Positions 2,854 through 61,671 of a DNA stretch of 64,000 nucleotides are shown piece by piece. Source of the DNA: Candidatus Heimdallarchaeota archaeon (lineage in GTDB: Archaea; Asgardarchaeota; Heimdallarchaeia; Hodarchaeales; Hodarchaeaceae); the NCBI GenBank assembly GCA_011364965.1, contig RDOB01000006.1:1-64000 (forward strand), in the 5' to 3' direction. The notes beneath the pieces are model-generated. The model ran no database searches and had not been told where the DNA came from. It saw nothing but the letters and a program-made list of their open reading frames with translations. Within the stretch, counting starts at the first letter, position 1. Each line of letters starts with the position of its first letter. The position numbers and the translations under genes are program-made.

Positions 2854-2870
2854 AAAAGGGAAAAGAAAGG

Positions 2871-39622: not shown

Positions 39623-40993
39623 ATGAGTAAAATGTCCAAAAAATTCGATTCATATTCATACAATCAATGGGGTCATTACCTCGAAGGCTTGTCAGAATCC
39701 ATTGACCCAGAAGAATATATAGTTGCGACATATTACATTTCTGTTGCCAGTGGAATCGACCCTTGGTATATCGGACGAGTAATGGTAAAGGAACAAACAA
39801 TAGGTTCCTATATTCCATACCATTCTGACCCTAAAACCATTTTACGAAAGTATGGTGGAAAGGTTATTGGTTTATACGAAGTACCTCCCCGAGAAATATC
39901 TATCCCTGCTCAATTAAAAGAACGTGATTATATTATCAAAATAGCCTATCCTAAAATTGGATTAACTCAATTTCCATTACTTTTAACAACAATAATGGGA
40001 AACATAAGCCTTGGAGGGAAAGTCAAGCTTTTAGATGTTGCTTTTCCGCCCACTTTTTTGCAGAAATGGCAAGGCCCTAAATTTGGGATTCCAGGATTAC
40101 GAAAGGAATTGAATATTCCTGATAGACCTTTACTAACCGTTGTAAATCATACATTTTCACTCGAGGACGGAACAAATTATTTTTACGAAGCAGCTATGGG
40201 AGGAGCTGATTTCGTAAAGGATGACGAAGGAATTGCAGGAGATATAGAATATCTACCATTAGAAGCACGAGTGACGAGTTATATGGAGAAAATGGATCTA
40301 GCAAAGGAAGAAACAGGCGAGAAAACCATATATTTGGTAAATGTGACCGCTGAACCTAAAACTTTGATAGAGAACGCAGAAAAAGCTATTGATAACGGCG
40401 CAAATGGTTTAATGGTAAATTATTTGACAGTTGGGTTACCCGCAGTCAAAATGTTGACTGAAGATCCTAGTATCAAGCTACCAGTCTTGGGTCACATGGA
40501 TCATGCAGGAGTCTTTTATGAATCAGAAATCTCAGGAATATCCTCGTTCTTAATGATGGGCAAATTTGCCAGATTAGCAGGTTTGGATATATTGGTGTAT
40601 CCTGGGGTATATGGAAAGGCTCCATTCTTACGAGATAAGTATATTGGCTGCGCTATGGCTTTACGTTATCCTTTTGGGAGTCTTAAACCTGTTTTACCAA
40701 TGCCAGCAGGAGGAGTTACTCCTGGAATAGTACTAAAATTGATTAAAGATTTAGATCGCGATATCATGATTGGCGCAGGATCAAGTGTCCATTCTCACCC
40801 TCAAGGAACTCGAGCAGGAGTAAAAGCTTTTCGTCAAATCATCGAAGTGGGTATGGATCAGAAATTAATGGTTGAAGCACTAGAAGATTTAGAGGATTTC
40901 ATTGATGATCATGACGAAGATTATCCTGAATTGGCCTCTGCGATCAATTCATGGGGCGAAACAGGCATTTCCTATTTTCCCGAACTCAATTAA
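39623..40993 (+). CDS. RuBisCO-like protein (form IV)
   Basis: EQTIG, MGN, GPKFGIPGLR, GGADFVKDDE, YGK (loop 6), PAGG, HSHPQG; several carboxylase residues are missing. Confidence 0.9.
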   Translation: MSKMSKKFDSYSYNQWGHYLEGLSESIDPEEYIVATYYISVASGIDPWYIGRVMVKEQTIGSYIPYHSDPKTILRKYGGKVIGLYEVPPREISIPAQLKERDYIIKIAYPKIGLTQFPLLLTTIMGNISLGGKVKLLDVAFPPTFLQKWQGPKFGIPGLRKELNIPDRPLLTVVNHTFSLEDGTNYFYEAAMGGADFVKDDEGIAGDIEYLPLEARVTSYMEKMDLAKEETGEKTIYLVNVTAEPKTLIENAEKAIDNGANGLMVNYLTVGLPAVKMLTEDPSIKLPVLGHMDHAGVFYESEISGISSFLMMGKFARLAGLDILVYPGVYGKAPFLRDKYIGCAMALRYPFGSLKPVLPMPAGGVTPGIVLKLIKDLDRDIMIGAGSSVHSHPQGTRAGVKAFRQIIEVGMDQKLMVEALEDLEDFIDDHDEDYPELASAINSWGETGISYFPELN

Positions 40994-42651: not shown

Positions 42652-42894
42652 TAGACATTTCTACGAAATCTTCAAAGCAATAAAATACCTTTTTTATTGT
42701 CATTAATATATGTGATTATACGAGTACAGCTGGATTTAACTAAGAAAGATCTTTATCTTTTTTCTCTTACCGAATAGGTGTTGATAACAGAATAAAGAGA
42801 AAATCCGATGATTTAGCTTCAAGTAAAATAATAGTATTTGGTTATAATATTCGTTAAACTGAATAAAAAAGAGGTTGATAGGAGAAGTGACCCC

Positions 42895-45663
42895 CTAACT
42901 TGGAGGTTTCTTCCGTCCTATAATCTTCTTCTTATCACCAGTTCCACCAGAACCTCTTCCACTGAATCGATCCTTAAATTTATCGACAACAGTGTCTAAA
43001 GCTCCAGTTTTCTTTCCAGCATAGAGAATTGCTGCTCCCCCACCAACAGCTCCGCCAATAACAAGCGCGGGTCCTACAAAGCCCCAAGGATTAAAAGCTT
43101 TAGTAGTGGTTGTCGAACTCCCAGTTATAGCAGTTTGTCGCGTAATAAGCAGCTCCTCAGGTCCAATTGTCACATTAAGTTCATAATCTGTTGTCAAACC
43201 TTGGTTCATATATACACGGAAAAAAATATTTGTTGTATTATAGACTGTATAATAAGACGAGTTCATGGGGAATGGGCCAACTTCTTCCGTGTTTCCTAAG
43301 GTGAGATCGCTCGTGTCGAAGATTGTGCCAGTCCCTGCTAATAGCTGAAGATCTAGGTTTTGTCCTTGAGGGAATGAAAGTCTTATTAATATCGCTGATC
43401 CTGCTGGTACATTTACAACATAAAAATCATCATCTTTGACTCGCATACGTAAGCCTGATTCCATACGTGAGATCGCTTGGCCTGGGATAGGATTGATATT
43501 GAATTGAGAAGCCTCTCCAAGAAAATCATTGTCTTCCCATGGATCATCAGTTTCAATAATATCAATGGTGAGATTGTAAGCGTTTGCTTCACCGAAAATA
43601 ATCAGATTGATGTAATATCTTCCAGTGATATCAGCAGTAAATGTTATAGACTCGTTAAATGAGGTAATATTTCGCTCCGCTAGCGATTCATCAGGATAAA
43701 ATAGCGAAAGATCAATATCATTTAACTCTCCATCGGTTTCTTGGGCAAAGTATGATAAATTAACCGAAATAACATCCGTTTCTATCAAATACACATAGTA
43801 CCAATCATCACTACCATCTCGCAATATAAGGTCATCGTGATGTCCTTCTCCAATTGGTTTTGCTTCAACGGGGAAGTTGTTGGATTCATAATCGTCATCA
43901 AATGCATCTATAGCAACTGTTAAATTATAATCCACCCCAACACCATTATAAGACGCGCCTACGATTACAAAAAGGTAAACATCTGCTTTTCTTACAAGGT
44001 GAGTTACCTCTTCAAAATCACCAGTGATTCCCAATGATAAATCCAAAGTTGTCCCTTCTTGTGTATAAAGGCCGAGATTTAAGTCTGCTAATGCGTCATC
44101 AAAATCGATACGAATCGTAATGTTATCTCCTGATAATAGAGGGATAGCAAACCAATCTTGATCACCTTTTAAGCTATATAATCCTGCGAAAGGATCAGCT
44201 AAAGTAGGTGCATAAGTTCTGGACGTGGGTGAGAGAAGATATGCAGTATTAGGGCCATTATTATCTTCAGCCCAGTCATCTGCATCTAGTAATCTTATCG
44301 AAAGATTATAATAGCGTGGTTCAGGGTTGTCACTAGTAATATTCAAGTAATAAACACTTGTAGATTGCGCTCGATGCGGGCCAACTCGTCCTGCGCTTTT
44401 ATCAGGGCCTATGGGAATGGGTTTATCTTCTGCAATAAAGGATTGGATGGAATAATTCTCATAGACTTTCAATGTTAGATCTCCTATAAAGGAGAACCAA
44501 TAAATTTCCACAAGTAACCGTTGTTGAGCTGTTATTGAGAGGTTATAACTATCACTGTCATCTCGAGAGATTACTCTTGTTTGAGTTCCTAATGCGAGTA
44601 TTCTGTCATCAATGGTTGAATTTTCTCCATTATTTACCTCTATTTGATCTTCCATATCGATATATAGATTGTAGGTTTTTGTATGTTGCCCGCCATGATT
44701 AGTTCCATCAATATAGAGATAGAACCATCCACTATTGCCCATTGTAAATTTACATACTTCTGTTGTTGGTGAACCATCTCCACCGTCAATAAAGTCATAT
44801 TCTTTAGCTGAAAGATCATGATTGTAGAGAATAATATCAGGCCCTGCTTGACTCGGAACCCCGTTGGCACCAAATGCCGAAATAGTGATATTCATCCATG
44901 TATCTGCATAAAGAAAGATAGAATAGATATCAATGTTTCCGTACTCAGTGTAGGTATCACCTGATAGACGCATATTTTCATAAGTACCTGGAACAATTTC
45001 ATCATCGTAAATATTTATGTAAGATTGTTTATCATTGCTCTGTAAGCGTTCATATTTGTCCTCGTAAATAATAGACATATTATATGTCGTTGAATAAGGA
45101 ACTGTGGAATAGATCCCACTAAAAATCGGATTAACAACAGAGACATTGATAATAATATCTATAGATTCAGTAGTAAGGATTGGACCAACTAGTTCTTCTG
45201 ACCCTCCTGCTCGACTTTCTTCAATAAGAGTACCATCTGGATAGAGAAGTTGTAAATTGATAGCAGCAGTGAATTTGGAGTCTTCTGGTTGAAGAGGGAC
45301 AATTAATTGACGACTTGTTTCATTCCACGCGTTCGATTCATTCAACTCTATATAAACCTGAAAATAAAACCCTGGTGCAACTCTAAAGCTATAGTAATCG
45401 GGGTGGAGTGTACTAACGTTGAGTGGAGTAGCTGGGTTGTTGGTTAATGATTCGTTGATTGTAAATATCCAAGGTGTATTGAAATTATCGTTACTTGTCA
45501 CCGCACCTTCCCATACACTATCCCAATATGTTAGGGGAGATGCGGAACTTGTTTGAGGTGTTATCAACGTGGAGTTGAAGAGAAGCTGTATGAAGAAGAA
45601 AAAAACTATAAGTTGTGCTAATGACTTTCTAGTATGTAATTTATTAGATTTCATGGTCATCAC
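42895..45663 (-). CDS. Membrane-anchored surface protein with tandem PPC-like beta-sandwich repeats
   Basis: Signal peptide; repeats of DD.+E.N+....A / D.D++ / DL.L.+Y / E.+ / Y.L.+; Thr-rich linker, Gly-rich C-terminal TM and basic tail; GAGGTG SD. Confidence 0.8.
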   Translation of the reverse strand: MMTMKSNKLHTRKSLAQLIVFFFFIQLLFNSTLITPQTSSASPLTYWDSVWEGAVTSNDNFNTPWIFTINESLTNNPATPLNVSTLHPDYYSFRVAPGFYFQVYIELNESNAWNETSRQLIVPLQPEDSKFTAAINLQLLYPDGTLIEESRAGGSEELVGPILTTESIDIIINVSVVNPIFSGIYSTVPYSTTYNMSIIYEDKYERLQSNDKQSYINIYDDEIVPGTYENMRLSGDTYTEYGNIDIYSIFLYADTWMNITISAFGANGVPSQAGPDIILYNHDLSAKEYDFIDGGDGSPTTEVCKFTMGNSGWFYLYIDGTNHGGQHTKTYNLYIDMEDQIEVNNGENSTIDDRILALGTQTRVISRDDSDSYNLSITAQQRLLVEIYWFSFIGDLTLKVYENYSIQSFIAEDKPIPIGPDKSAGRVGPHRAQSTSVYYLNITSDNPEPRYYNLSIRLLDADDWAEDNNGPNTAYLLSPTSRTYAPTLADPFAGLYSLKGDQDWFAIPLLSGDNITIRIDFDDALADLNLGLYTQEGTTLDLSLGITGDFEEVTHLVRKADVYLFVIVGASYNGVGVDYNLTVAIDAFDDDYESNNFPVEAKPIGEGHHDDLILRDGSDDWYYVYLIETDVISVNLSYFAQETDGELNDIDLSLFYPDESLAERNITSFNESITFTADITGRYYINLIIFGEANAYNLTIDIIETDDPWEDNDFLGEASQFNINPIPGQAISRMESGLRMRVKDDDFYVVNVPAGSAILIRLSFPQGQNLDLQLLAGTGTIFDTSDLTLGNTEEVGPFPMNSSYYTVYNTTNIFFRVYMNQGLTTDYELNVTIGPEELLITRQTAITGSSTTTTKAFNPWGFVGPALVIGGAVGGGAAILYAGKKTGALDTVVDKFKDRFSGRGSGGTGDKKKIIGRKKPPS

Positions 45664-45672
45664 CTCTTCTTC

Positions 45673-48600
45673 CTATCCTGTCCCTCCATCTGGTCCAGTA
45701 TCTTGTAAGAAAGATCTCTCTATAGTTCCATGTAGAATATATATCATTCCATCGATTGTACCTACTGCAATGTCATCGACACCATCATTATTAAAATCAG
45801 CAATGACTGCAGAGAGAACAAGATGCTTTGGAATGAATGCAGCCCAGACCACTTGGGTAGGTTCTCTCTCTGTTCCACTTAAAGCAATAACATTGTCAAT
45901 ATTGAAGGAGATGATGTCCAATTGTCCATCATCATTGAGATCCGCAGTTAAATATCTTGGTAGATAGAAAATGGAACGATCTTCAAATGTCCATAAAACA
46001 CTCAGATCTCCATCTAAGCAGTACGTTCCATTCGCAAAGGATCGTATTGCTATCTCATGTAGTTGATCGGAGGGATCAAAGTTACCTGTTGCCATATGTG
46101 ACAGACGGAATGGAATATTCAAGTGGATTTTCTTATCTTCAAATATGGAACCAAAACTTGAATAATCGAGGCTGTCATAGATGATCACAGTTCCATTACG
46201 TACAATTACTGCTAGTTGAGGGTGTAGATTTGTAGTAAAGATACCCACTCTAAAATCATGCACTTTTATAAGGATACCATTGACTGGGTTACCATTATTA
46301 CCATTTAATATCCAGATTGAGTGCTCATAGATTTCAACCGCGAAGTCGAGAATTCCATTAGCGTCGTTCAAGAAATCAGCAACCTCAAATCTGGTGAATG
46401 GGCCAAAAGGTTGGATAAATTGCCATATTACTTTCCCATGTCCTAAAACTGGATCCCTAGTAGTATTATACAACATAATTCTACCAAAGATGCTACTGAA
46501 ACGATAACCCATACTTACAGCAAGCTCTTTCTCTGAGTCATGATTATAATCAACAAACTGCATTTGGTTAGCAATAATCAAACCCATGAAGTGCTGCCAA
46601 GAAGGTCTTCCAGTTTGACCGTTGATCATAACAAGCATACCTGAACGTAATGCAGCTGCAACATCTGAGTACCCATCATTATCTACATCGTCAATAGCGA
46701 CTTTCTGAATTGGTGAGCTGGTACGATATTTCCAGATGACTTCACCAGTCAAACCATCTAATGTTATTAAATAGCGACTTTTATCCGCAAAAATAACGTC
46801 TTCAATGTCATCATTATTGAAATCACCAGTGTCAATAGCATAAACAGGACCCCGAGTTTGATATGAAATACTTCCTTCAGGTATGGAGAGGTCAAGGGCG
46901 ATCGTTGGTTCATGATGGACAAAAGTCCAAGTACTTAAGGTGCAGGAGGTATTTAGAATGGCCACTTCCCCATAAGGACCGAAATTACCTGCTGCTACAG
47001 ATATTCCTGTTCCATGAAGCTGCATATATCCCAAGGGGGTCCCATAAGTGCCATCTAATGCAAAAATCGCTCCAGTATGGGGATTGTCAAGGGTATATTC
47101 TGTCAAAAGCAGAAGATCATCATCTTCAGAATCATGATCCAAATCACCCATTTTGATTTCTGTTGCATAGGTATCCCATAGGTTGTACTCCCAGAGGTAA
47201 ATTTCGGGATTAATTCCTGATAAAGCCACTAGTTTTGTCTCAACTTTCTCAGGATTCTTCCAGTAACTGAAGCTATCCATAACAAACCGACTATTCCATG
47301 TTGTATCTCCAGTTCCTGTTACATGAACACGATAGATTCTACCATAAGGATCATTCAATTCAACATATTGAACGGGACGATTCGGTATAAACGAAGTAGT
47401 ATCTATTAGATTTCCATCAATATCGTACGCTTCCCAGACGAAAAATCCAGAATAGGAACCAGTTGAGAAATATGCTGATACTGTGGTAGCAAAGTCGTCT
47501 ATAGTTATATAATTGTCTAATTCACGGGTGAAAATTGTTATATCCCCTGAATGAGGTGTATATATGGATGAACTTCCTGAATCCCAAGCAGTCCATCCTA
47601 AGTAGGTGCCAATATTAATTGGATCAGTGTTCGAGAAATTAATGCCTTGGTCAATATATGATTCTCCAACACGAGTGAGGGATACTTGATCTTCAAAAGT
47701 TAAAGTAACGTTATAATGCAGTTGTATTAATAGATCGTCATAGCTGTCTCCATTAAAGTCATATTTAATCGTTTCCTTAGCATTTCCAGTACTACCATCA
47801 AAAGAGGTATTGAATAACGCTTCAGTCATATTAGATGTACCATCATAAACATACATAACTCCAGATTCGAATATGATTATATCTTCTATGGAATCTTCAG
47901 TTATATCTAGCATTGTTGCTGTAAGACCATAGATTGAGCTATTTCGCAGGAATGTGTAGATTACTGTTCCATTATAATCGATTATAGCAACCGTTCCATT
48001 TCCAGAATCAGGATCAACCCCAGAAACAATTACTCTATCTTCCGTAGTCGAAATATGTGTAACATGTGTTGTAGGATCTGGATCCATGTGATCTGGGAAT
48101 GTATAGAACCATTCGGGTCTAGCATCATTGTTTCCATCATAGTTTCCATCTACTCCACTAACAAAGAAAATGCTATCCCCAATCCCTGTGAGAACATCTG
48201 GGATAGTATCATTATCAATGTCTTCGAACATCATTTCTGCATATTGCGTAGCATCTATTGCGAAGAAGAATACGTCATCGGGCCACCGTTCTATACCTGT
48301 TGTTCCTTCTAAAGCAATCATATAGAGGTTATCTGCTGTGATGTCATGTATAAGTGCAATAACTTCCTTTACACCGTCACCAGTAAGGTCTATAGTACGT
48401 AAATTAAGGACTATCGAGTTTTTAGAAGAAATACTTGTACTAGATAGGTTATACTCCCATATTAGTGATCCAGTTGCACCATTAACCGCACGAATCAGCG
48501 GAAAACCATTGTAACCTATACCGTCAGGATCCATCATGGCAAATACAATGTCATCCACACCATCAAGTGTAATATCCGTTGTGTCTGCAAGATGATCAGG

Positions 48601-51600
48601 TTGAATCGGTGCACTAGAAAACTCTCCTTGCTCATAATTCGTCCAGACTGGATCCCAATCGAAATAGAGGTAATCGGTTGCTGAAGGTTCCGTGAAAATT
48701 CCTTCAAACGCATAAACGTTTCCCTCAATACATGATACAACAAGTTCGTCCATTCCATTTCCATTGACATCATGGAGCTCAATATCAGTTGTTTCAGTAG
48801 CCAAGCCATCGCTATGCCAAGGTTGATAATAGAAAAGAACCTCTTCTTCGCCACCTGTGCGAGCTACTTCAACAAGGAATGCTTGATTTCCAGAAGCGAT
48901 AGCAATTTCACGTCTTCCATCTTTATCAGTGTCTCCTGTGTCAATGGCTCTGGCTTCTTTGAAATCAAATAGGCTGAAATTGGAACTGGGGTTCATACCA
49001 AAGAAGATATTATTATAAAATCCCCGATCAGGAGTCTGTCGGTCGCGATGGAAATCTTCTCCCCTGAAACCAACAGCTGCTGCTAAACCATACGAACCAG
49101 TGTTCTGATCATTTTCTGGATTATCAGTTCCTGTTGCATCCTCGCCATATGCAACGATTGATCCGCCATAGCTAGAGAGTTGTGTATCTTCTGTAACGAT
49201 GGGGGTATTATAGTTGATAGTAGGGGTGCTAACAGTCGTGGTATAGTAAATAGCGCTACCACCGCCACCTAGAGTTAAATTGACTAAAGTTCCGACTGGA
49301 ATAGTGTCTCCTTCGGTAGTGATATAGCTTACTTCTCCACCTCCAGTAGTAATACTTCCTCCAATATTTTCAACTAATCCAGAGTGGGCTGTTATGTCAC
49401 CCGAATTGAGTGTCATTGTGCTATCAGGAGGACTAACTGATTCAGCATACCCGACGCCTACAGTCAGTGTTGATGTAGTAGTCTGGGTAAGACTAATTTT
49501 AGCTAATGAGAAAAGATGATATTGTGCCATAAAGGAATAAACGAAACCACCTTCCCAGTGTGCCGAAATAGCTGGTCCAACAGAAATCAAAGACTTAACT
49601 AGGATAAAGGGATAGTCTTTCAATACTAATAGACTGAATCCATACAGTGGGAAAGAGATGTACTCTGCAAAAGGTGGAGTAGTTGTAACTGGTTCAGGAT
49701 CACGCCATGTGGCTCCATCGTCTTTACTATAAGTAATTTGAAGGGCACCAGAAGGAGCATAGCCATCCGCTTCGAAAATAATCATCAAAGTATGGTCAGG
49801 TGTTACCGTTTGGGTAATTGAGGGGTATAATTCGTCGATTGCATCCACAGTTGCACGGGAATAGGGAAAAGCTCCATCCCACATTGGTGTGGAGTTTGAT
49901 TTGGCAATCCAAAGATCATAATCAACTTTAGCTTCTTTAAAGCTCATACCAGTAAAAACTAGTACGACATCTCCACTAACTGATCTGATCGCGTCATGCG
50001 AGATTGCTTTATACCCGAGTTTGTTCCAAGTTTGATTATTCTCAAATGCACTATTACCAATATTTGGAATTCTAGCCTCTGGTCTAAGATTTGGAGCAGA
50101 AAAATCACCTTTCCAGTAAATTCCTCCATTTGAGGAGTTCATATAGGAAATAGCCACCCGCTGAGCAGTGTTGTTATTGTACTCCCAAACACTTGGATTA
50201 TAAACATAATTTCCATGGAAATCTTGAACTGCTAGATTACCACTTCCCGTACCAATACCCACCGCGTTTTCCCATGTGAGGCTACTTGGATTTAATTGCA
50301 GGAGCCAGATTCCTTCATATGTAAAAACATTAAAAGTCATCTTTGCACTAAATGCAATCCAAACACGACCGTCCTTTGCTTGGAAAAGGGAGGGATGAAT
50401 CTCATAATTGGAATAGGTCCACGACCAGGTTCCTGCGCCCGCAGTCACAATCTCCACTCCAAGAGTGACAATAGGTCCCCGCTGAGTCCATGTGTCACCA
50501 TAATCTGCGCTCGTAGCCCAATAAAGTCGATTTCCACCCTTGAATACCTGTATCCAATTACCATAATATAGAGTTGTGCTTACATTGCGTTGTAGTTCAA
50601 TCATATCAGTATTCCGTAATGCAAGCTGAACTTTTGTCTCTAAGTCAAACATTGCTTTAAGCTTGATAGTGGGGAAGTTGACATAGCTAGTTAAAATAGA
50701 TCGTTCTACATAATTGTTATTCCGCTCTGTTTCAGTTCCATTGTTTTCATAAATAACGATTCCTTTGAAAGTTCCGACAATTATCTCCTTATACTTGTCC
50801 ATGTCTTGATTATCGACAGTAAGGTCGTATACTGGGTTTTCGTCCATTAAATGATTAGGAGCCCACCATGTGTAAGCATATGTACCAATTTGATTTTCTA
50901 GGATGGCTACAAATCCGTTATATGTTCCCCACCAAGTCTTATTTAGTCCACCTATGATAATCTCGTTAAGAGTATCATTATCTGTATCAGAAACTACAAT
51001 AGATTCAATTGATAAAGCTCTAACTGCGGGGGAAACAAGAGGATTGCCAGGAGTGAAGTAACGACCTCTAGCGGGGAAAGGATTCTTTAAAAAATTCTCA
51101 TAATAATTATTTGAGCCGCTAGATTCAAATACAAAAAGAAAGCTACCCGCGGCAACAACAAATTCACCGAAACCGTTGTAATCCATATCCCCTGCATATG
51201 CAGCCGCTGTAAATTTATCGATTCCAAGATCTGCAAAAAGTGGAGCCCAAGCGGATTGTCGGAGGTCAGCTTGCCAAATAAGTGTGTATTCATCATCGAT
51301 AGACACAAATCCATCATTATTTTGCTCCCAGATAAATATAGAGAGACCTGCAGTTGCAACCATCTCTAAGAAGCCATCATTATCCATATCTAATCCAACG
51401 ACAATCTCTTCTACATCATCCCAAATAGTACGGTAGAATGTACCTGACACACCTTCTAGTTCTTCGTAAGCATATGGAGAGGTCAAGGAAAGTTCTTTAT
51501 GGGTTAGATCTTGTGATCGATAAGCACGCTTGTAAGTATTATTTGTTAGATGTTCAAAAACGTACAGGTTCTGGTCGTACGAACCGACAATTACTTCTTG

Positions 51601-54600
51601 TCTGCCATCTTGATCCATATCACCTGTTTCAATTGCAAGAGTCCAGCGAGCTAGTTCTGCTTGTGAATTCCAGACTTCAAAGACATGATACCCATAGTTA
51701 GCTAGCAGGTTACCATAACTGTCTGCACCAGATTTAAGATTGATTTCTAAGCGGGAAATGAGGGGATTTGTTCCTATTATAAAGGCATTGTGATTTTCAT
51801 ATTCTGCTAGCAATTTAACCATCATACCTGTGTGATTATTGTATGTGGTTAAATGAGTGAGTACCCCTGTAGCTGGATCAATGGCGAATGTAGGAGTTGT
51901 GAGGTTATTAAACCAGAGACCACCCCAACTATTTGTATAAAGCCATTTATTTTCTACCCATTCAGGAGCCCAACGAGAGCCTTTATTCTCAAAGTAGGTT
52001 GCTCCTTCTCGATTAGCGTATCCTACGGTGAGATCTAAGTCACCATCACCATCAAAGTCATATAATTCTGGAGAATTGTATAATTTGTCTGTCGCTTTTA
52101 GGTTCATATCACGGAAGTATTCGGTATCTAGCCTAAACATGGTATTATGGATATTTTCGATGAAATACAACCGCCCATTTGTAAGGACAAGATCAGAATC
52201 CCCATCCGCGTCAACATCACCCCAAGCAACCTCAGGAACGACCAAAGACTTTTCAAGAGCTCGCCAAAGGAGACCAGTAATCTCATGTTCAGCCAATTCG
52301 AATCTACCTACATATGCTCCGATAGGACTTGCAGCCAAATCGAATGTATAAACATCCAACCCAGCCATAGATTGTTGTTTGTTTGGATCAATGGGATCAT
52401 ATAGCTGATCTTTGTCCCCCCATCCAAGAAACATCAGCTCTGGGAAATGGTTTGGATCTTGATTGAAATCAACGAAAGTAGGGCTAATAGACATTCCATT
52501 GTAAAAAGGGTTCGTATTTACGGGATAGAAGAAATAATTTCCGAGAACTGACCAAGTTTCTACTAAGGAGGGAAATACCACTAGTTTTCCATTATCAGTT
52601 CCCACAACAATATCGTTCGCAGGGACATTAATATCAACTATTTCAGCATAAGGCCAATAATCTTCTATCACAGCGAAAATATTTTCCCAGAACGATTTCA
52701 TTAACGAAACATGATCCATACTGAAATAATTACCTAGGATCCCAGGTAACCAGCTCTGATCAATTTCAAGCTGGCGTAATTCTTCATTCACATTAAAAAT
52801 ATCGCTGCTAGATTGATTATATAACCAAGTAGGGATTTTACCGGGGCTTTTCACCTCAGTTATCGCCCAAATGTTGGTACCTTGTGTGTAAGAATCATTT
52901 TTGTACGAGTTCCAGAGTAAATCATAGGCCTTTGTTGCTGTATTATAGCGGAACATGATGATTTTCCCGTCTACAGTCCCAAGTACAATCTTTTTACCTT
53001 CACTTTGACCTGTAGTATAAGCTTTGTAGTAATCTAGATCAAGTGAACCAATAGTGATAGATGAAGCAGTGTCCATGGGACGGTACATAACTGGAGCATA
53101 ACCTCCTTTAATTTTATAATACCCACCGTCCGTTACATTAATCCGCATATATCGGAAATACGCCCAATGTTTGGAAGAGAGCACAGGGTCAATATCTAAG
53201 AGAACATCATCATCACCTGATTTCCATTGAATTTTGATATTTTCATTGGGTACACGAACCCATTGTTGAGTATCAGGAGAAATCTCAAATGAAATTTTGT
53301 TTAAATTGGGATCATATGCATCATGGAAACGAAGAGTAACATCATAACCAAGAGTGGTTCCAGGTACAGCCCATAAACCATCTCCCATGACTTCTTGGTC
53401 ATTACCCCAATCAACTATTGCACTAGCTATGGAATCACGGGCATTAAAGGTTGTATAGTTTTCTGCAGGGGGGTGACTTATTGGAGGATCAGAAATGTAA
53501 ACACCATCTTCACCCCAGGGATCAAGTTTGCGATGAATAGCCATAGAGGTGTTTTTAGGCCATTGAGGTTCCCAGACATAACGAGCATAAGGTTCAGTTA
53601 TGAAGATCTTAGTAGTATCATTCTCCCAATACACATGCAGATCGGACATATTCTCAATAGGGAGGAAATTCCCCGAGGGTTTCATAGATCCATTAATAAA
53701 AACGGTCATTTCTTGGTAAAAAGTATCGTTGTAGGGCATATACGTACCCGAAGGAATTCTAGTAAGGTTATTGTTTGACCAAGTCATCCAATCAATATAA
53801 TGGTTAAGGTAATGTCCTAGACCTTCAAAACCACCTAACTCCCAGGAGTCGAAAGGTTCCCAAAGCTGGTGAGTGAGATAACAACCACCTGCAACATTTG
53901 GATCCCAATTGATTACATAAACCCCCTGACCTTGAGCAATGTAAACCACTTCATCATGAGGATCATTATCTAAGGAATCCACTTCCATTTGGGTAACGGG
54001 TTTCCAGGATATATTTCCTGAATCCCAATGATAACGATAGGAGTTGTCTTGTGTTAACGGCCAAGGTTTACCATTAATTGACAAAACTGTGCCATTATTT
54101 TCGTAAATATAAACTCTCCCTAGACTCGTACCGGCGATGATTTCTGGGAGGGCATTATAATTGGTATCACCAACATCAATGGAGTAAATTTTTTCTCCAA
54201 CATTGATTGTAGCCTTCTCTGCATATTCAATCCAATGTTGCTTTGAAAATGGATATCCAGAGTGATTGATGTATTCATAAACATGGATTTTTCCATCCCA
54301 TGAACCAGCAATGATGTCAGGAAGATAATCTTTGTCTACATCAGCAATTTTCACACCCCAGACCTGTTGAATCTTGGGACTTGTCCAAACATGCACGAAT
54401 TGATTTTCCATGTTATCAAAGGGATCATAGATATGTTCCTGTTCAAATACGTAGACATGACCGTCAGCAGAGCCAGCTACTATCTCCAAAAATTGATTAT
54501 TATCTGTATCACCAAAATCAATAGAGATAACATCCCCCTGAATGATTTGATCCCCTGAATCCCACACTTTATCGTAATTCCTAGTGTGACCATTCCAACG

Positions 54601-54993
54601 ATAGATATGAATTTCATTATCGTATAAATATCCTCCTCCAACGGCCAGAAATTCTTTGGAGGCATCAGTTTCTATACAACGAACTGCTGCTTTAGTTAAC
54701 CATGGTTCCCAAACACTTTGATATTGCATTTCGTTATTCATCAAAAATTTGGAAATATCATAATCACTTGGGAGATATTTTGAGTCAACTCCAGGATCAG
54801 AGCTCGAGTAATAAGTTGACACTTCCTCGGAGATACTCCTTAGTGGGGGGACAATTCCTTGCGGATAGAGTCCATATTCATCAGTGAGGAAATCCATGAA
54901 TGGATTGTATATCAAAGCTTCCGTAACACTAGGTCCAAAGAGAAATATAGTGACTGCGAAGAGTGCTGCAAATCTAACTAGTTTATTTCGCAT
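45673..54993 (-). CDS. Very large secreted FG-GAP/Asp-box/PQQ-like multi-beta-propeller protein
   Basis: Signal peptide MRNKLVRFAALFAV (ATG 54993 behind AGGAGG; ORF track starts at 55011); many GD.D.DG..EI+.G motifs; two Asp boxes (SADYGDTW, SKDDGATW); DG.TG...W.Y blades; no C-terminal TM. Confidence 0.85.
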   Translation of the reverse strand: MRNKLVRFAALFAVTIFLFGPSVTEALIYNPFMDFLTDEYGLYPQGIVPPLRSISEEVSTYYSSSDPGVDSKYLPSDYDISKFLMNNEMQYQSVWEPWLTKAAVRCIETDASKEFLAVGGGYLYDNEIHIYRWNGHTRNYDKVWDSGDQIIQGDVISIDFGDTDNNQFLEIVAGSADGHVYVFEQEHIYDPFDNMENQFVHVWTSPKIQQVWGVKIADVDKDYLPDIIAGSWDGKIHVYEYINHSGYPFSKQHWIEYAEKATINVGEKIYSIDVGDTNYNALPEIIAGTSLGRVYIYENNGTVLSINGKPWPLTQDNSYRYHWDSGNISWKPVTQMEVDSLDNDPHDEVVYIAQGQGVYVINWDPNVAGGCYLTHQLWEPFDSWELGGFEGLGHYLNHYIDWMTWSNNNLTRIPSGTYMPYNDTFYQEMTVFINGSMKPSGNFLPIENMSDLHVYWENDTTKIFITEPYARYVWEPQWPKNTSMAIHRKLDPWGEDGVYISDPPISHPPAENYTTFNARDSIASAIVDWGNDQEVMGDGLWAVPGTTLGYDVTLRFHDAYDPNLNKISFEISPDTQQWVRVPNENIKIQWKSGDDDVLLDIDPVLSSKHWAYFRYMRINVTDGGYYKIKGGYAPVMYRPMDTASSITIGSLDLDYYKAYTTGQSEGKKIVLGTVDGKIIMFRYNTATKAYDLLWNSYKNDSYTQGTNIWAITEVKSPGKIPTWLYNQSSSDIFNVNEELRQLEIDQSWLPGILGNYFSMDHVSLMKSFWENIFAVIEDYWPYAEIVDINVPANDIVVGTDNGKLVVFPSLVETWSVLGNYFFYPVNTNPFYNGMSISPTFVDFNQDPNHFPELMFLGWGDKDQLYDPIDPNKQQSMAGLDVYTFDLAASPIGAYVGRFELAEHEITGLLWRALEKSLVVPEVAWGDVDADGDSDLVLTNGRLYFIENIHNTMFRLDTEYFRDMNLKATDKLYNSPELYDFDGDGDLDLTVGYANREGATYFENKGSRWAPEWVENKWLYTNSWGGLWFNNLTTPTFAIDPATGVLTHLTTYNNHTGMMVKLLAEYENHNAFIIGTNPLISRLEINLKSGADSYGNLLANYGYHVFEVWNSQAELARWTLAIETGDMDQDGRQEVIVGSYDQNLYVFEHLTNNTYKRAYRSQDLTHKELSLTSPYAYEELEGVSGTFYRTIWDDVEEIVVGLDMDNDGFLEMVATAGLSIFIWEQNNDGFVSIDDEYTLIWQADLRQSAWAPLFADLGIDKFTAAAYAGDMDYNGFGEFVVAAGSFLFVFESSGSNNYYENFLKNPFPARGRYFTPGNPLVSPAVRALSIESIVVSDTDNDTLNEIIIGGLNKTWWGTYNGFVAILENQIGTYAYTWWAPNHLMDENPVYDLTVDNQDMDKYKEIIVGTFKGIVIYENNGTETERNNNYVERSILTSYVNFPTIKLKAMFDLETKVQLALRNTDMIELQRNVSTTLYYGNWIQVFKGGNRLYWATSADYGDTWTQRGPIVTLGVEIVTAGAGTWSWTYSNYEIHPSLFQAKDGRVWIAFSAKMTFNVFTYEGIWLLQLNPSSLTWENAVGIGTGSGNLAVQDFHGNYVYNPSVWEYNNNTAQRVAISYMNSSNGGIYWKGDFSAPNLRPEARIPNIGNSAFENNQTWNKLGYKAISHDAIRSVSGDVVLVFTGMSFKEAKVDYDLWIAKSNSTPMWDGAFPYSRATVDAIDELYPSITQTVTPDHTLMIIFEADGYAPSGALQITYSKDDGATWRDPEPVTTTPPFAEYISFPLYGFSLLVLKDYPFILVKSLISVGPAISAHWEGGFVYSFMAQYHLFSLAKISLTQTTTSTLTVGVGYAESVSPPDSTMTLNSGDITAHSGLVENIGGSITTGGGEVSYITTEGDTIPVGTLVNLTLGGGGSAIYYTTTVSTPTINYNTPIVTEDTQLSSYGGSIVAYGEDATGTDNPENDQNTGSYGLAAAVGFRGEDFHRDRQTPDRGFYNNIFFGMNPSSNFSLFDFKEARAIDTGDTDKDGRREIAIASGNQAFLVEVARTGGEEEVLFYYQPWHSDGLATETTDIELHDVNGNGMDELVVSCIEGNVYAFEGIFTEPSATDYLYFDWDPVWTNYEQGEFSSAPIQPDHLADTTDITLDGVDDIVFAMMDPDGIGYNGFPLIRAVNGATGSLIWEYNLSSTSISSKNSIVLNLRTIDLTGDGVKEVIALIHDITADNLYMIALEGTTGIERWPDDVFFFAIDATQYAEMMFEDIDNDTIPDVLTGIGDSIFFVSGVDGNYDGNNDARPEWFYTFPDHMDPDPTTHVTHISTTEDRVIVSGVDPDSGNGTVAIIDYNGTVIYTFLRNSSIYGLTATMLDITEDSIEDIIIFESGVMYVYDGTSNMTEALFNTSFDGSTGNAKETIKYDFNGDSYDDLLIQLHYNVTLTFEDQVSLTRVGESYIDQGINFSNTDPINIGTYLGWTAWDSGSSSIYTPHSGDITIFTRELDNYITIDDFATTVSAYFSTGSYSGFFVWEAYDIDGNLIDTTSFIPNRPVQYVELNDPYGRIYRVHVTGTGDTTWNSRFVMDSFSYWKNPEKVETKLVALSGINPEIYLWEYNLWDTYATEIKMGDLDHDSEDDDLLLLTEYTLDNPHTGAIFALDGTYGTPLGYMQLHGTGISVAAGNFGPYGEVAILNTSCTLSTWTFVHHEPTIALDLSIPEGSISYQTRGPVYAIDTGDFNNDDIEDVIFADKSRYLITLDGLTGEVIWKYRTSSPIQKVAIDDVDNDGYSDVAAALRSGMLVMINGQTGRPSWQHFMGLIIANQMQFVDYNHDSEKELAVSMGYRFSSIFGRIMLYNTTRDPVLGHGKVIWQFIQPFGPFTRFEVADFLNDANGILDFAVEIYEHSIWILNGNNGNPVNGILIKVHDFRVGIFTTNLHPQLAVIVRNGTVIIYDSLDYSSFGSIFEDKKIHLNIPFRLSHMATGNFDPSDQLHEIAIRSFANGTYCLDGDLSVLWTFEDRSIFYLPRYLTADLNDDGQLDIISFNIDNVIALSGTEREPTQVVWAAFIPKHLVLSAVIADFNNDGVDDIAVGTIDGMIYILHGTIERSFLQDTGPDGGTG

Positions 54994-55011
54994 TTTTGTG
55001 CCTCCTATCAT

Positions 55012-58000
55012 TTACAAGCCCCCCTCCTTTTTCTTCCAGACAAGTAATTGCTGGATATTAACAAAAGATGTCAAATAGAGAAGTAAAGAAACCATTCCAA
55101 AACCGATGACCCCACCAATGAGGAATGGAACGATTTGTAAAGGTTCGGTTAAAATATAGAATGTAATACGTTTAATCGCTTCCGAACCGTCAAATCTTGT
55201 ACCCGAAACTTCTAAAGTATAGATGCCTTTAGATAAAGAAAGGATCTCACTTTCCCATTGATACTTGCGAGGTTTATATTTCATTTCGTGCTCCAAATGA
55301 TCTGTAGGTCCACCCACAAATTGATATTGAACATTGCCAAAGAAAGTAAAGTTGGCAACAGTGACAGTAAGTGTAGTTGTGTCATAAATAGTATCAATGG
55401 GGGAAGTTACTAAGAGATCATCTCGATAAATATCCAATGCTGCATACATTTCTGTTGCATTAGTGAATGTGAGGGGGTCAGTGCCAGCTAATATTTCCAG
55501 TCCATCAGAGAAAGTATCGTTATCCGTGTCCCAATTTGACGCATTCGTTCCATAAATCTGCCATTCTGCTCCATCTAACAATCCATCACGATCTGAGTCA
55601 GGGTTAAACGGTCCACCACCCGCTACGAGTACCGTGGGAGAAAGGGTGCCATTTGGATCCCCGAAGTATTCCAAACCGTCAGAGATCCCATCATGGTCAC
55701 TATCGAAGATGGAGCCATCAGGACGGCCAGGAATAATACTATCCCATACCATAGGGTTTGATCCATACGGCATATCCTCCATGATTTCAGCACCGTCTGG
55801 CAAACCATCGTCATCCGTATCGGGATCGTCTGCATAAGTTGGGTAAAAAGGGTTATAAGGCCCCATCAGAGTGATTCCTAGTCCACTAGCACCCCAACCA
55901 ACTGGAACTACTGCTGTGGTCTCATTGCAATCTAATAAGCCATCTGCGTCAGTATCATTACTAAGAGGATCAGTCAAGTGGAAATAATGCTCATCATAAT
56001 CGGATAACGTGTCGTTATCAGTATCTAGAACATCAGGACGTGTGCCTAGATCACGGAGTTCAAAACTATCATTCAAGAAATCTCCATCAGTATCCAATAG
56101 GACAGGAGAGGTGTTATATGGTAGGAGAATAAAGAATCCAACATAGGGGTAAATCAAACTAGATTGATTACCAATCATTAATTCTGCCCCATCGAGGATA
56201 AGGTCTCCGTCGGTATCATTATTCAAGGGATTTAGTTTAATTGGAAATGCGATCTGATAATATTGATATACAACTTTGGGAACTAATCCTGATGCCAAAT
56301 ACAACTCCCAACCATCAGTAAGTCCATCTAAATCAGTATCGCCATAAGTGGGGTTTGTACCAAAGTAATACAATTCGTCTCCATCACTTAGTCGGAAGGT
56401 CATATCAACTTTACCACCCGGATAGACAACATAATAGGTAATCGAGTCCATATCCGTATCCCATTTTAATGGATCTGTTTTAATACCGTTGTAAGTCCCA
56501 TAAACCTCATCACCGTCACGGAGGTAGTCACCATTCCACACTCCATCTCCATTTTCATCGTATGCAGGATCCCATTCTTCAAGACCGTCATATCGATTGT
56601 TATGGTTTAAGTCATTCCATCTCTCTGAGTCAGTGTCAGAATCATCTGGTTTAGTTCTATAGATAAAGATTTCCTCATAATCATCCAGTCTATCATTGTC
56701 AGAATCTTCATCCATTGGATCAGTGAAGTAGATATTTAATTCCATCCAGTCTCCAATTCGATCTCCATCACTATCGATTGAAAAGGGGTTTGTATGGAAC
56801 CAATAAAGTTCCTCACCGTCAAGTAATCCATCGTAATCTGTATCGGGGTTATGTGGATGTGTACCATATTTAAAGTACTCGTCTCCATCGATAACCATGT
56901 CTCGATCAGAATCTGGATGTCGAGGGTCTGATCCGAGAAGTAATTCTTGAAGATCTCCTAAACCGTCCCCATCGGTATCAGGATTATTATAATGCGTGTG
57001 ATTTGAGTCAGACGCTCGGGTTCCCTCTAAACCATCAATCAATCCATCATCGTCCGTATCAGCGTCACATGGATCGCTTGGGGGGTCTAAGGATAGTTCG
57101 TATCCATCTGAATTGAGGATTTCACTAACTGGAGGTTCATCATGTGGTTGATCTGGGGCTCCAGTTCTATCATAGCTTCCAATTCCTGTATCCCCATCAG
57201 TGTCTGGATTACATGGATTTGTATACGTGATATTTAAAACGGGTTCTCCTTCAACCATATATACAATAGGCATACCTTTTACTTCCCACCAGTCAGTAGT
57301 TAATATCCAAGAGCCATCTTGTATTTTAACCCAAGCATGAGCTTTGGACGGAGCTATCATCCCATCATATAACTGCTCCCATGTATCATCATCTGTATCA
57401 TTATCCAGTGGATGTGTATATCCACCGTTGAAAATTATAGGTGGGGTGTCAATACCAGGCTGTGTTTCATTATATAGCTCATCCAATCCATAAAACGGTC
57501 CAAACTCTCCTTCTTCACCATCTAATAAACCATCCCCGTCAGTGTCTGGGTTTAGGGGGTCAGTTCGGTCAGTATATTTTACACCACCAATCATTACAAA
57601 CTCCACGCTTCGTGTGACTCCTTTGATATCATAAGCATGGTTTACTTCATAGTAATCGTCAATTCCATCTTCATCAGTATCTGTGTCGAGCGGATCTGTT
57701 CCTATAATGATTGCTTCTTCGTAATCAGTTAAACCGTCCCAATCAGTATCAGGTTGCCTTGGATTGGTTTTGGTATTCTCATATTCGATAAAATCATCTA
57801 ATCCGTCTCCATCTGTATCTGGGAGGATCGGATCTGTCTTGGAAGTCTGCGTTTCAAACTTATCTGATAATCCATCCCCATCTGTATCAGCAGCATATGG
57901 ATTTAAGCCAGGAGTTGCCTCCTCATCCACATCCGAGATCCCATCTTGGTCTGCATCCAATCCCATAGCCCCACTTTCCTTCTGTTCTTCAGGATCACTA

Positions 58001-61000
58001 GGAGTTAATTCTAATGGCGAAGGATCAAGGGGTTTCCATTCAACCTCGATATCCCAGTCCGCAAACAAGAATGTTAACGTAACCGTGATCCGTAGGATGA
58101 TTTCTAAGAAAATCTTAAGCGGCACCGGGTTCACTAAATCCTGGAAAAACGTCAGAATGATCTCCATAGTAAAGTCAAGCGCTATTCCAACTATCAGTAA
58201 ATTAATTCCTATATGAACATTCATACCTAAGGTGATTTTTAGGGTAAATGAACCCTCTTCTGGCCCTGCAGCTGATGCTGCACGTTTTACAACTTCAAGA
58301 AAGATTCCAAATGAAACTGTTACCGTTATTGCATCCAATCCGAGATATTCACCTATTGAATTTAGAGCTCCCGCTGTCCCCCCTGTAAGAAAATCAAGCA
58401 GAGTGAATGTACGGGAAATAGTAATAGTAAATTGGAATCCCCATTCAATAATTTTAAAGAAATTATCTGTGTCAAACACTCCACCTTTTAAGGTAAAGAG
58501 TTCTAATTCGAACCAACCTTTTCCTGAGAACTCTAGTTCAAGGCCTAATGATTCTAGTAAGAAAGCCATCAGCGGATTTTCTTCTGTTCCAAATCCTCCT
58601 ATTTCTAACCCTGCTTTGAATGTTGGAATTAATTCAAAGAACGAGAAGATTTCACCAAAGAAATCGTCTATTCCTCCACTAAATGGATTTAAACCACCGA
58701 AAACAATATCCAGCATCCAATCTGAAAAAGCAGCTTCATCAAAACCGAAATGAGGATATAATCCCAATTCAATCCCAATACTAAAAAGACTGAAACCTCC
58801 AAGCCCTACTGGAAGGCTTCCAGACCATTCTGGAGGAATTAGATCAGATGAACTTAGCGCGTTCATAATTGCATCTAAAAGCATGTTAATTAATTGTTCA
58901 ATTTGTCCACCTACCCAATCCATTAATTGTCCAAATAACCAGCGGATACCATCGGTAAAGATATCCTTTGCGTTAAAGATTATTCCCAATATACCTTCCA
59001 TGGCGTCTTTAAGGTCATTAAGGTTTGAAATACCAGGGATACTGAGGGATCCGATCAGAGAATCAAGCCCTGGAACCTCATCAAGCTGTCCCAACAAATT
59101 TTGGATGAGTTCATGAGCTGAAGGCAGATCTGCACTATCAACTCCGAAAAATTTGGGGAAAATAAATTCCAAAATATCCTTTACAAAAGATATGTCGATT
59201 CCAGCAAATTCCTTTATCAAACTGACTCCAATATTTTGAATAAGTCCTTGAAGAATTCCTTGGATACTATTGTCTTTTGCGGATATGATGATTCTGAAAA
59301 ATGCTGTTCCCATTTCCGCAAATGTCTGGATTTTTTCGAGAATTGAGGTATCTATACTAAGACTGCTTGCAGTAGACAATAAAAACCTAATTGTATTGTC
59401 TATAACCGCTGCAGGATCCTTAAATTGTTCTTTGAATTTATCAATAGTACTACTAATGTATTGCTTTAATTCATCTTTATCACTAATCACAGCAATGATT
59501 GTTACGATATTATTGACAGCTTTTTTAATTTTTCCTTCCTTAGTATCATCAATGTCTCCCATCATTAGTTCTGCAACATCAATTATGAAATCCATTGTAT
59601 TATTCAAATTAGGTAGTTGATCCTTATTAGTAAAGTCTCCATTAATAGCTCCTGCCACCATTGTAGCACCTGATACAATCATTTCCTTGATTTGGGTATC
59701 CTTTGTGCTATCGCTGTGGAATTGAAATCCAGTTTGAGTTTTGAAAGTATCAATTGCTGAACGTAAATTGGTCATAAAGTCGGTTACACTAGACATAGCG
59801 GATTCCTTAGCTGCAGAAATAGCCATATTGACCTGATAGATTAAGTTTTGAAGCTGGTCTGCAGCATAAGTTACTTCAGGTACGTTTTCATCAATTAGTT
59901 GGAGAAGATAACCAAATATACTTGCTAAATTATCATCAGTCGGTAAGTCAGAAGGATAACCTAACAGTGTACCAATATTCCCGCCCGAAAAGCCAATTGC
60001 AGACATCAACAGGTTAACTAAAATCCCAATCAATTTGCTCCAAGTAGATGCATCTTGAGCACTAAGGGTGTCAGCTCCTGATCCTGCTCCAACTAAACCA
60101 ATGGCCTCAAAGAAAAATTGTATAAATTGAGGGAGATACTCTGAAATCGTTTTCTTTAAATTACCGCTGGCTAAGAAGTCCATTATTGTTTTGAGGAAAA
60201 GACTGATGCCAGAAATGTATTTCGTTAAATCACCACTGTCTAATCCAAGTAACTCCAAGAATTGTTCTATTAAAACGTCTAAATATCGCTCGCTGATGAC
60301 AGAAAGAAGGGCATCAAGAAAATTTCCTCCCCCTTCTTTCATTTCATCAATGAGAGATACTGATAAACTAAGAATCTCATTAATTATAGTCTTAAACCAT
60401 CCCCAGTCCTCAGGAATAACTAGATCTAGCAATCGTCCTATTATATCACTAATTGCTGAAAAATCCCCTCTTAGAAGAGGAATAGCATCAAAGATCAGCT
60501 GGACATAAGGTTCTAATTCCTCTGGAAAAGGTATGAATTCTTTGATGATGTCAAATAAGGTTGATAATGCAGACTCAACTGAGATGTCATCACCACTAAA
60601 GAATCCAAGCATGGCCTCAATTGCCATAAAAGCGGTTTCTATGGTTTGCATAGCATCCTCCCCAAGATTTATTTCATCCCCAACCTTCCCAATGAAAATT
60701 TCTAGGAGTATATCAACAAGCCCTCCAATCGGGCCTTGAAGTCCTGATTCTATGGGCAATAAACCTATTAAGAGATCTCCTACTCCAAGTGATTCTTCAG
60801 TGGATTTTTTGATATACATTGCTGGACGATTTTCTTCAGGAAGTTCTCGTATATCAAATTTAGGCTCTATATAAGCTGGAAAACTTTCTTTGAGTTCTTC
60901 AAATCGCTTTTGTTTCAGAACTAAATCTTCCTCTCCTATGGGGTCGACAGGAGTAAATTGTCGTTGAACTATATCATTAATATTATCTGCAAAGTATTTT

Positions 61001-61671: not shown

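Follow-up and report, generated by a model that had tools for sequence, protein, structure and literature searches.

A three-gene cassette encoding candidate calcium-dependent cell-surface proteins in a Hodarchaeales archaeon

A cassette of three predicted exported proteins

We analysed a window of 64,000 nucleotides (nt), positions 1 to 64,000 of contig RDOB01000006.1 in genome assembly GCA_011364965.1 of a Candidatus Heimdallarchaeota archaeon of the order Hodarchaeales (here genome G000, contig C15; 2.97 Mb, 87% complete), and describe a cassette on its reverse strand (42895-61671). In the list of open reading frames (ORFs) of the window, the cassette consists of three co-directional ORFs with no other genes between them.

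55012..61671, reverse strand: gene 1; 2219 amino acids (aa); predicted type-I membrane protein with a distal head, a thrombospondin type-3 (TSP3) Ca2+ stalk, a C-terminal transmembrane (TM) helix and a short basic tail
45673..54993, reverse strand: gene 2; 3106 aa; multi-propeller protein, predicted to be exported; signal peptide present, C-terminal anchor absent
42895..45654, reverse strand: gene 3; 919 aa from ATG; predicted type-I membrane protein with PPC-type beta-sandwich modules, a Gly-rich TM helix and a basic tail of ~48 aa

A Shine-Dalgarno-like motif is present at each of the three gene starts. The TAA stop of gene 1 and the ATG of gene 2 at 54993 are separated by 18 nt that contain the motif AGGAGG; counted from its first ATG, the gene 2 ORF would span 45673-55011 and encode 3112 aa. 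From the gene 2 stop it is 9 nt to a GTG at 45663, from which the gene 3 ORF spans 42895-45663 (922 aa), and ~18 nt to an ATG at 45654. An earlier note on this DNA, made from its letters, had assigned AGGAGG and GAGGTG as Shine-Dalgarno motifs of genes 2 and 3. The former stands, but the latter itself contains the GTG at 45663, and the start of gene 3 is therefore more likely the ATG at 45654, with a 6-nt spacer and a product of 919 aa.

All three proteins are acidic, with isoelectric points of 4.05, 4.30 and 4.22 for genes 1, 2 and 3, respectively, and cysteine-poor. Export signals were predicted in all three and C-terminal membrane anchors in genes 1 and 3, both from hydropathy alone. The TM helix of gene 1 is followed by the tail KKKEGGL, and a TM helix with basic tail is also present in homologues aligned across the phylum. 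In gene 3, a signal-like segment is combined with a C-terminal Gly-rich TM helix and a basic tail of ~48 aa, whereas the N-terminal signal-like segment is the sole hydrophobic stretch of gene 2. Genes 1, 2 and 3 contain 17, 39 and 22 N-x-S/T sequons, compared with 11.5, 28 and 9.6 expected from composition. The Pfam families above cut-off across the cassette were TSP3_bac in gene 1 (PF18884, 47.6 bits versus a cut-off of 25), FG-GAP_3 (PF13517, 109.8 versus 26.9) and FG-GAP (PF01839, 34.1 versus 22.1) in gene 2, and PPC in gene 3 (PF04151, 33.6 versus 25.9, in a single stretch at residues 620-686); none of the three proteins matched an enzyme family above the Pfam or NCBIfam cut-off. ORFs, junctions, hydropathy and Pfam thus agree with the earlier note in its description of three tightly packed, exported, Ca-motif-rich and apparently non-enzymatic proteins, rich in sequons, of which the first and third carry C-terminal TM anchors with basic tails and the middle one a signal without an anchor.

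Linkage and distribution of the cassette genes

The comparison covered 400 Asgard genomes and 21 genomes of the archaeon's own genus. Profiles of the N-terminal head of gene 1 and of the N-terminal propeller of gene 2 matched 100 and 82 of the 400 genomes, respectively; the pair is present in 20–25% of them and is carried by the closed genomes G134 and G137. Homologues of gene 1 bear the NCBI names 'Candidatus Hodarchaeales archaeon' or Promethearchaeota. At every one of more than 60 loci with both genes on one contig, as seen by comparing the two profile match lists by eye, genes 1 and 2 are adjacent and on the same strand, with starts ~6.5 kb apart, and this adjacency holds for three paralogous forms (main, reversed order and shorter) in several Asgard families. 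Five genomes of one genus encode both genes as a single fused ORF of 4271–4901 aa. At the fusion junction, the TM helix of gene 1 is followed by a basic linker of ~75 aa and then by the signal-like segment of gene 2 as a TM helix, a hairpin that would leave the two ectodomains extracellular. The trees built for gene 1 and for gene 2 from 11 pairs agree in their main clades and have similar branch lengths. We consider the two genes functionally tied because they adjoin at every locus compared, are fused in one genus and have been duplicated as a pair. As comparative evidence that they act together as a conserved functional unit this is strong, but it does not bear on what they do.

The reversed paralogous pair (gene 2' followed by gene 1', ~35% identical) lies directly downstream of gene 3 in two genus relatives (G010:C1:1645288-1680106, G011:C4:139153-174120) and is followed there by genes for a NosD-like beta-helix protein and a TPR protein; it was not found in the 87% complete G000. 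The third, shorter pair (~1550–1600 aa and ~1950 aa) was recovered at G335:C4:310619-316221 and 10 further loci, mainly in family f31. In this subfamily gene 1 retains the alpha/beta domain at its N-terminus as well as the amphipathic beta domain, and again it always lies next to its partner. Two paralogous copies of gene 1 contain in-frame stops (G008:C49:10216-15180, one TGA and one TAA; G320:C76:10435-13833, one TAG) and may be decaying copies or assembly errors.

Within the genus the distribution is all-or-none: 11–12 of the 21 genomes have all three genes and nine have none, four of these nine being at least 91% complete. The order 1-2-3 is kept in genus relatives (G018, G008, G010, G011, G016, G017, G004) and in one genome of another family of the same order (G023). 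Among the Asgard genomes compared, gene 3 is confined to Hodarchaeales. What lies downstream of the pair varies with the lineage: a gene for a NosD-like beta-helix protein (G034 and the reversed pair of G010), one for a 493-aa PPC+CUB protein (downstream of the fused gene in G347) or unrelated housekeeping genes (G028, G134, G137). In the two f19 genomes, the downstream genes encode radical-SAM and DUF4130 proteins. The PPC+CUB protein of G347 was rejected as a counterpart of gene 3, to which it has no real similarity. The earlier note had proposed a complex of all three products and a test of the three-gene order in other genomes. Adjacency, fusion and co-duplication support a functional tie between the first two partners, which at more than 60 loci do not occur independently of each other, but gene 3 is not a general subunit. 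The three-gene order holds in the genus and extends to a single further family of Hodarchaeales; beyond the order, gene 3 is replaced or gone.

Gene 3 is also the fastest evolving of the three, with identities within the genus of 41–49%, compared with 67–78% for gene 1 and 58–65% for gene 2. It contains three DDxxExN motifs (residues 463, 589 and 706) and had no sequence match in PDB. Sequencing runs from seven studies contain DNA near-identical to the cassette (at least 95% of sampled words); the samples were marine, estuary and mangrove sediments or were labelled 'soil'. One environmental contig spans 44872-61900 with 27 differences. The contigs of three independent DNA runs all break within gene 3 at 44361-44872 (residues ~264–434), and gene 3 also holds most of the single-base differences listed, which points to a region that varies between strains. 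Gene 3 thus appears to be a lineage-specific, fast-evolving accessory and is possibly the exposed, variable part of the cassette products. In one metatranscriptome, four contigs of 154–220 nt with at least 99% identity map to the 3' half of gene 2 and the 5' end of gene 3, a weak hint that the cassette is transcribed; no RNA contigs of that metatranscriptome lie over gene 1 or the gene junctions.

The cassette is flanked by two features that were read from the letters.

61672..62102, reverse strand: AT-rich upstream spacer and presumed promoter region of the cassette, with a TATA-like TTTATAAA ~90 nt 5' of the gene 1 ATG
42861..42870, reverse strand: oligo-T run 25 nt past the gene 3 stop, possibly a terminator-like end of the unit

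The upstream AT-rich spacer measures 430 nt and has a divergent epimerase gene on its far side, and 243 nt separate the cassette from the next gene, which encodes a UbiA prenyltransferase. Because the oligo-T run and the 243-nt spacer follow the cassette, and the AT-rich spacer and the divergent gene precede it, we take the three genes to be the whole unit. The G+C content of the cassette is 0.38–0.40, compared with 0.32–0.36 in most neighbouring genes. This excess derives mostly from codon positions 1 and 2; at third positions the G+C content is 0.28–0.31 versus 0.22–0.29, only ~5 points above the neighbours, and these values give no clear sign of horizontal transfer. Elsewhere in the window, an ORF of 1296 aa that matched nothing in Pfam at E ≤0.001 lies between two alpha/beta hydrolase genes (31739-35629, reverse strand), and a RuBisCO large-chain-like gene (39623-40993, forward strand) lies beside genes for histidyl-tRNA synthetase and a starch-synthase-type glycosyltransferase.

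Domain architecture and relation to known systems

Gene 1 can be divided into six segments, with conservation and AlphaFold confidence (predicted local distance difference test, pLDDT) given where they help to tell the segments apart.

61531..61671, reverse strand: gene 1 residues 1-47; long basic n-region and hydrophobic segment; signal peptide or signal anchor
60937..61479, reverse strand: gene 1 residues ~65-245; alpha/beta domain of ~180 aa; caspase/CHAT-like or generic Rossmann-like fold; AlphaFold2 pLDDT ~85
58852..60744, reverse strand: gene 1 residues ~310-940; ~30 amphipathic helices, ~600 aa; pLDDT 45–80; conservation 0.14–0.35
58027..58833, reverse strand: gene 1 residues ~947-1215; meander of 10–11 long (9–19 aa) amphipathic beta strands, ~270 aa; pLDDT 60–85
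55492..57963, reverse strand: gene 1 residues ~1237-2060; ~24 TSP3-type Ca2+-binding loops; Pfam TSP3_bac
55063..55479, reverse strand: gene 1 residues ~2065-2203; membrane-proximal beta-rich domain and C-terminal TM helix

Homologues of ~2050–2300 aa with the same layout occur across Asgard archaea. We read gene 1 as a type-I membrane protein and favour cleavage of the signal because, in the closed 6.04-Mb genome G137, the signal of the orthologue is of the classic cleavable type and ends in AASA/AEF. The head, ~1200 aa, had no Pfam match, no PDB sequence match at E up to 1 and no usable match in the ESM Atlas, and among 1.84 billion representative proteins its profile matched 141 clusters only. 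It was modelled in two AlphaFold runs, with 21 sequences (pLDDT 59.9) and 63 sequences (pLDDT 66.1). In structural comparison with VIA, the alpha/beta domain at its N-terminus matched SAVED-CHAT best (8tl0_A, Z 10.4 over 161 aa at 4.2 Å), tied with halves of sugar-binding proteins (Z 9.5–10) and followed by legumain (Z 9.0); Foldseek returned caspase-6 with a probability of 0.91. Neither His nor Cys is found among the invariant or at least 90% conserved columns of 21 gene 1 homologues, and an active clan CD peptidase (caspase, CHAT, legumain) was rejected for this lack of a conserved catalytic His/Cys. The helix array that follows is the least conserved part of gene 1. The amphipathic beta domain is the best conserved part outside the repeats (0.47–0.52 across the phylum). 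In the stalk, 14 strict and 24 loose motifs of the DTDxD or DxDxDGxxDxxE type were counted; its length and register are conserved across the phylum, with identities of 0.43–0.65 and few gaps. A view of the membrane-proximal domain as the most conserved part of gene 1 proved wrong, as the TSP3 region and the beta domain are.

Gene 2 contains 13 FG-GAP-type Ca loops and two Asp-boxes and comprises the following regions.

53944..54726, reverse strand: gene 2 residues ~90-350; N-terminal FG-GAP-like propeller
50644..52296, reverse strand: gene 2 residues ~900-1450; second FG-GAP propeller region with canonical Ca loops; FG-GAP 53.7 bits and FG-GAP_3 50 bits on the slice
49594..50556, reverse strand: gene 2 residues ~1480-1800; BNR/sialidase-like region; Asp-boxes at residues 1495 and 1756
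45694..48996, reverse strand: gene 2 residues ~2000-3100; further FG-GAP/PQQ-like propeller regions (~2000-2500, ~2500-3100), variable between lineages

The N-terminal propeller is the most conserved part of the cassette, with 48–63% identity to ten homologues from five families and a mean column identity of 52%. A profile search of PDB with this propeller returned ITFG2 (1.9e-10) and integrin alpha-6 (1.4e-3), whereas a plain PDB sequence search with gene 2 gave marginal matches to integrin alpha-V only. Gene 2 shares FG-GAP repeats with D-x-D-x-D-G-type Ca loops with the group formed by integrin alpha, ITFG2, BBS2/BBS7 and FAM234 and, like an integrin alpha subunit, is paired with a second membrane protein. 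It differs in being a multi-propeller protein of ~3100 aa without thigh or calf legs, C-terminal TM helix or GFFKR tail, and its matches are at the level of single repeats. An integrin alpha subunit proper was rejected on account of the several propeller regions of gene 2 and its lack of a hydrophobic segment at the C-terminus. Pfam gave no VWA or integrin-beta match in gene 1 or gene 3, and no VWA domain was among the 50 VIA matches of the gene 1 alpha/beta domain.

The named TSP3 proteins nearest to gene 1 are the Myxococcus xanthus adhesins CglD and MtsD, both below the NCBIfam cut-off, as was a further match to MtsC. CglD, MtsD and MtsC (NF033765, NF047639, NF047638) are surface proteins that share with gene 1 long runs of TSP3 Ca2+ loops and function, by their NCBIfam names, in Ca2+-dependent adhesion or cohesion, but are bacterial lipoproteins or MYXO-CTERM proteins without the head, TM anchor or propeller partner of gene 1. 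Equivalence to CglD or MtsD was rejected, with scores of 143.7 versus 400 bits and 25.5 versus 800 that are driven by the repeats only. A second parallel is the signature domain of thrombospondins, in which, as in gene 1, a fixed count of type-3 Ca2+ loops, conserved in number and register, precedes a beta-rich domain. Thrombospondins have 13 type-3 loops, whereas gene 1 has ~24 and is membrane-anchored and archaeal; no TSP_C or EGF domain was found in gene 1 by Pfam.

Proposed role of the cassette

Our preferred, still tentative reading is that the products of genes 1 and 2 form the core of a Ca2+-dependent complex for adhesion or contact at the cell surface. Gene 1 would be the anchored stalk, its head held out on the fixed-length TSP3 Ca2+ stalk of ~24 loops and composed of a putatively inactive caspase/CHAT-like domain, an array of amphipathic helices (~600 aa) and ~270 aa of barrel-like sheet. 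Gene 2 would be exported, with a BNR-like region beside four or more FG-GAP propeller regions of the integrin-alpha type, and, as it has no anchor of its own, would most likely be retained on the cell by binding gene 1. Gene 3, the order-specific and fast-evolving third membrane protein of PPC modules, would be an outward-facing accessory. The most likely role of such a complex would be to attach the cell to partner cells, to particles or to surfaces. In culture, Loki- and Hodarchaea show adhesion and crawling, with their adhesion molecules unnamed (PMC13716822), and cling to syntrophic partners (PMC13716822; 10.1101/2025.02.26.640444); Hodarchaeales attach to partners and show unexplained surface filaments at the contacts (10.1101/2025.02.26.640444).

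Several points weigh against this reading. Binding between the products, their surface location, Ca2+ binding or dependence and adhesion are inferred, and export and anchoring are predicted from hydropathy alone. The tiny RNA contigs could be DNA carry-over. The fixed length of the TSP3 stalk across the phylum sets it apart from typical repeat adhesins, in which the number of repeats drifts. Of the Asgard genomes searched, 75–80% lack the pair, including the four genus relatives that are at least 91% complete, and it is therefore not a general Asgard adhesion machine. Finally, the amphipathic domain of the head has no obvious job in a plain adhesin.

This last domain is the basis of an alternative that we regard as unlikely, namely that the cassette is a membrane- or lipid-contacting device in which the helix-shielded beta sheet of the gene 1 head binds lipid or inserts into another membrane, whether of a partner cell, of a vesicle or of a protrusion of the cell itself, while gene 2 and the Ca2+ stalk serve targeting and spacing. 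In its favour, besides the conservation of the domain, the strands are strictly amphipathic, with one face 67–100% and the opposite face 0–40% hydrophobic, and in both AlphaFold models long helix-bearing loops alternate with turns of 2–3 residues, as in outer-membrane proteins. AlphaFold models the domain as a barrel-like sheet with a shape like that of a 12–14-strand outer-membrane barrel, and the best 50 VIA-align matches were all outer-membrane barrels, led by CymA (Z 10.0–10.3), EspP (Z 10.1) and NalP (Z 9.9). These Z scores of ~10 are only modestly above the stated VIA background of 7–8, and the matches cover 173–209 residues at root-mean-square deviations (rmsd) of 4–8 Å (5.5–6.8 Å for those with Z 9.9–10.3). 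The likeness of residues ~947-1237 to CymA and to the autotransporter beta domains of EspP, NalP and BrkA thus concerns predicted shape, amphipathic strands and the alternation of loops and turns; the gene 1 domain differs in being internal, not C-terminal, and had no sequence similarity to them in the PDB search at E up to 1.

The best five Foldseek matches of both independent models were lipid carriers (lipovitellin, vitellogenin, MTP and ApoB), which likewise speaks for lipid contact, but with E-values of 3-9e-3, a TM-score of ~0.1 and an rmsd of 43 Å. Gene 1 was not assigned to the large lipid transfer proteins (LLTPs), as these Foldseek matches lack three-dimensional superposition and are gone from the VIA best 50; Pfam gave no Vitellogenin_N or LLTP match in gene 1, and no PDB sequence matched at E up to 1. 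In the ESM Atlas the beta domain matched unnamed Bacteroidota clusters only (0.89–0.91, low recognition), which is a lead at most. Further arguments against lipid contact are that the hydrophobic stripes span 7–9 alternate positions (14–18 residues), longer than the belt of a membrane barrel, and that the hydrophobic face may simply pack on the helices. Asgard archaea have a single membrane, and archaea lack an outer membrane and the barrel assembly (BAM) machinery; a barrel-like amphipathic domain is not expected in such an organism. We describe the domain as a barrel-like, amphipathic and conserved sheet, probably turned either towards lipid or towards the amphipathic helices beside it. A more specific version, in which the head would be a latent membrane-inserting barrel, kept soluble by a helix jacket, carried on a rigid Ca2+ stalk and aimed by the gene 2 propellers at the membrane of a partner or vesicle, is highly improbable in our view; if true, it would represent a dedicated Asgard device for cell-to-cell membrane contact or exchange.

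We also consider it improbable that the cassette is an extracellular capture scaffold for feeding, with propellers, BNR-like region and PPC modules binding glycans, peptides or particles and retaining them at the cell surface for degradation or uptake, instead of joining cells to one another. Consistent with this are the two Asp-boxes of the BNR-like region in gene 2, the PPC domains, which are typical of secreted proteases, the NosD-like beta-helix, a fold common in polysaccharide-active enzymes, among the third genes of relatives, and the peptides that sustain cultured Hodarchaeales (10.1101/2025.02.26.640444). However, no catalytic family is above the cut-offs in the three proteins, BNR_2 scores 23.3 bits in gene 2 against a Pfam cut-off of 31.4, and in the neighbourhoods compared the pair has no consistent transporter or hydrolase neighbour.

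Somewhat less likely again, the three genes could encode independent giant adhesins that merely lie side by side and form no complex. Giant surface proteins are often clustered in archaeal genomes, and gene 3 is not kept with the pair outside its own order; this account is opposed, for genes 1 and 2, by the constant adjacency across three subfamilies, the fusions, the matching trees and the all-or-none distribution. A general surface coat or S-layer-like glycocalyx is very doubtful: the proteins are large, acidic, sequon-rich and anchored, and an irregular protein coat of unexplained make-up covers cultured Lokiarchaeia (10.1101/2025.07.22.663070; 10.1101/2025.11.06.686947), but only 20–25% of Asgard genomes carry the pair, near-complete relatives from the genus lack it, and the S-layer protein of cultured Hodarchaeales is reported as a different, tetrameric one, KTGHC1_P6247 (10.1101/2025.02.26.640444). 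An archaeal S-layer as such was rejected on this different protein and on the nine of 21 genus genomes that have none of the three genes. The cassette matches neither a described S-layer nor a hydrolase system; the earlier note likewise recognised no described system of this architecture.

Our literature search found no paper describing the pair of genes 1 and 2, nothing for Asgard with FG-GAP, and nothing relevant for Asgard with thrombospondin or for archaea with large lipid transfer protein; a paper on START-domain lipid transfer was rejected as a precedent, since it concerns a different protein family. A point of comparison is the 'badge' protein LOKIASV2_13140 of the Lokiarchaeon Nerearchaeum marumarumayae, a giant predicted surface protein with very large beta-sheet domains of a fold called novel (10.1101/2025.07.22.663070). 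Compared by description only, it differs from the cassette in that no partner gene, stalk or pair is described for it and in being reported from all Promethearchaeaceae genomes compared (10.1101/2025.07.22.663070), whereas the gene 1 profile matches only 4 of the 14 genomes of family f19, which includes the closed genome G137.

Returning to the adhesion or contact complex, what is new here is the conserved linkage of the pair, its fusion, the agreeing trees, the patchy distribution and the restriction of the fast-evolving gene 3 to one order; by type, the proteins belong with known adhesion-type surface proteins, with an unexplained head. Their significance is limited, as only between about one fifth and one quarter of the searched genomes carry the pair and its function is deduced. 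Carriers and non-carriers exist within one genus, and deposited proteomes are available in which carriers can be checked. With integrin-alpha-type and thrombospondin-type modules combined in one gene pair, the cassette is a concrete candidate for the adhesion molecules of Asgard archaea.

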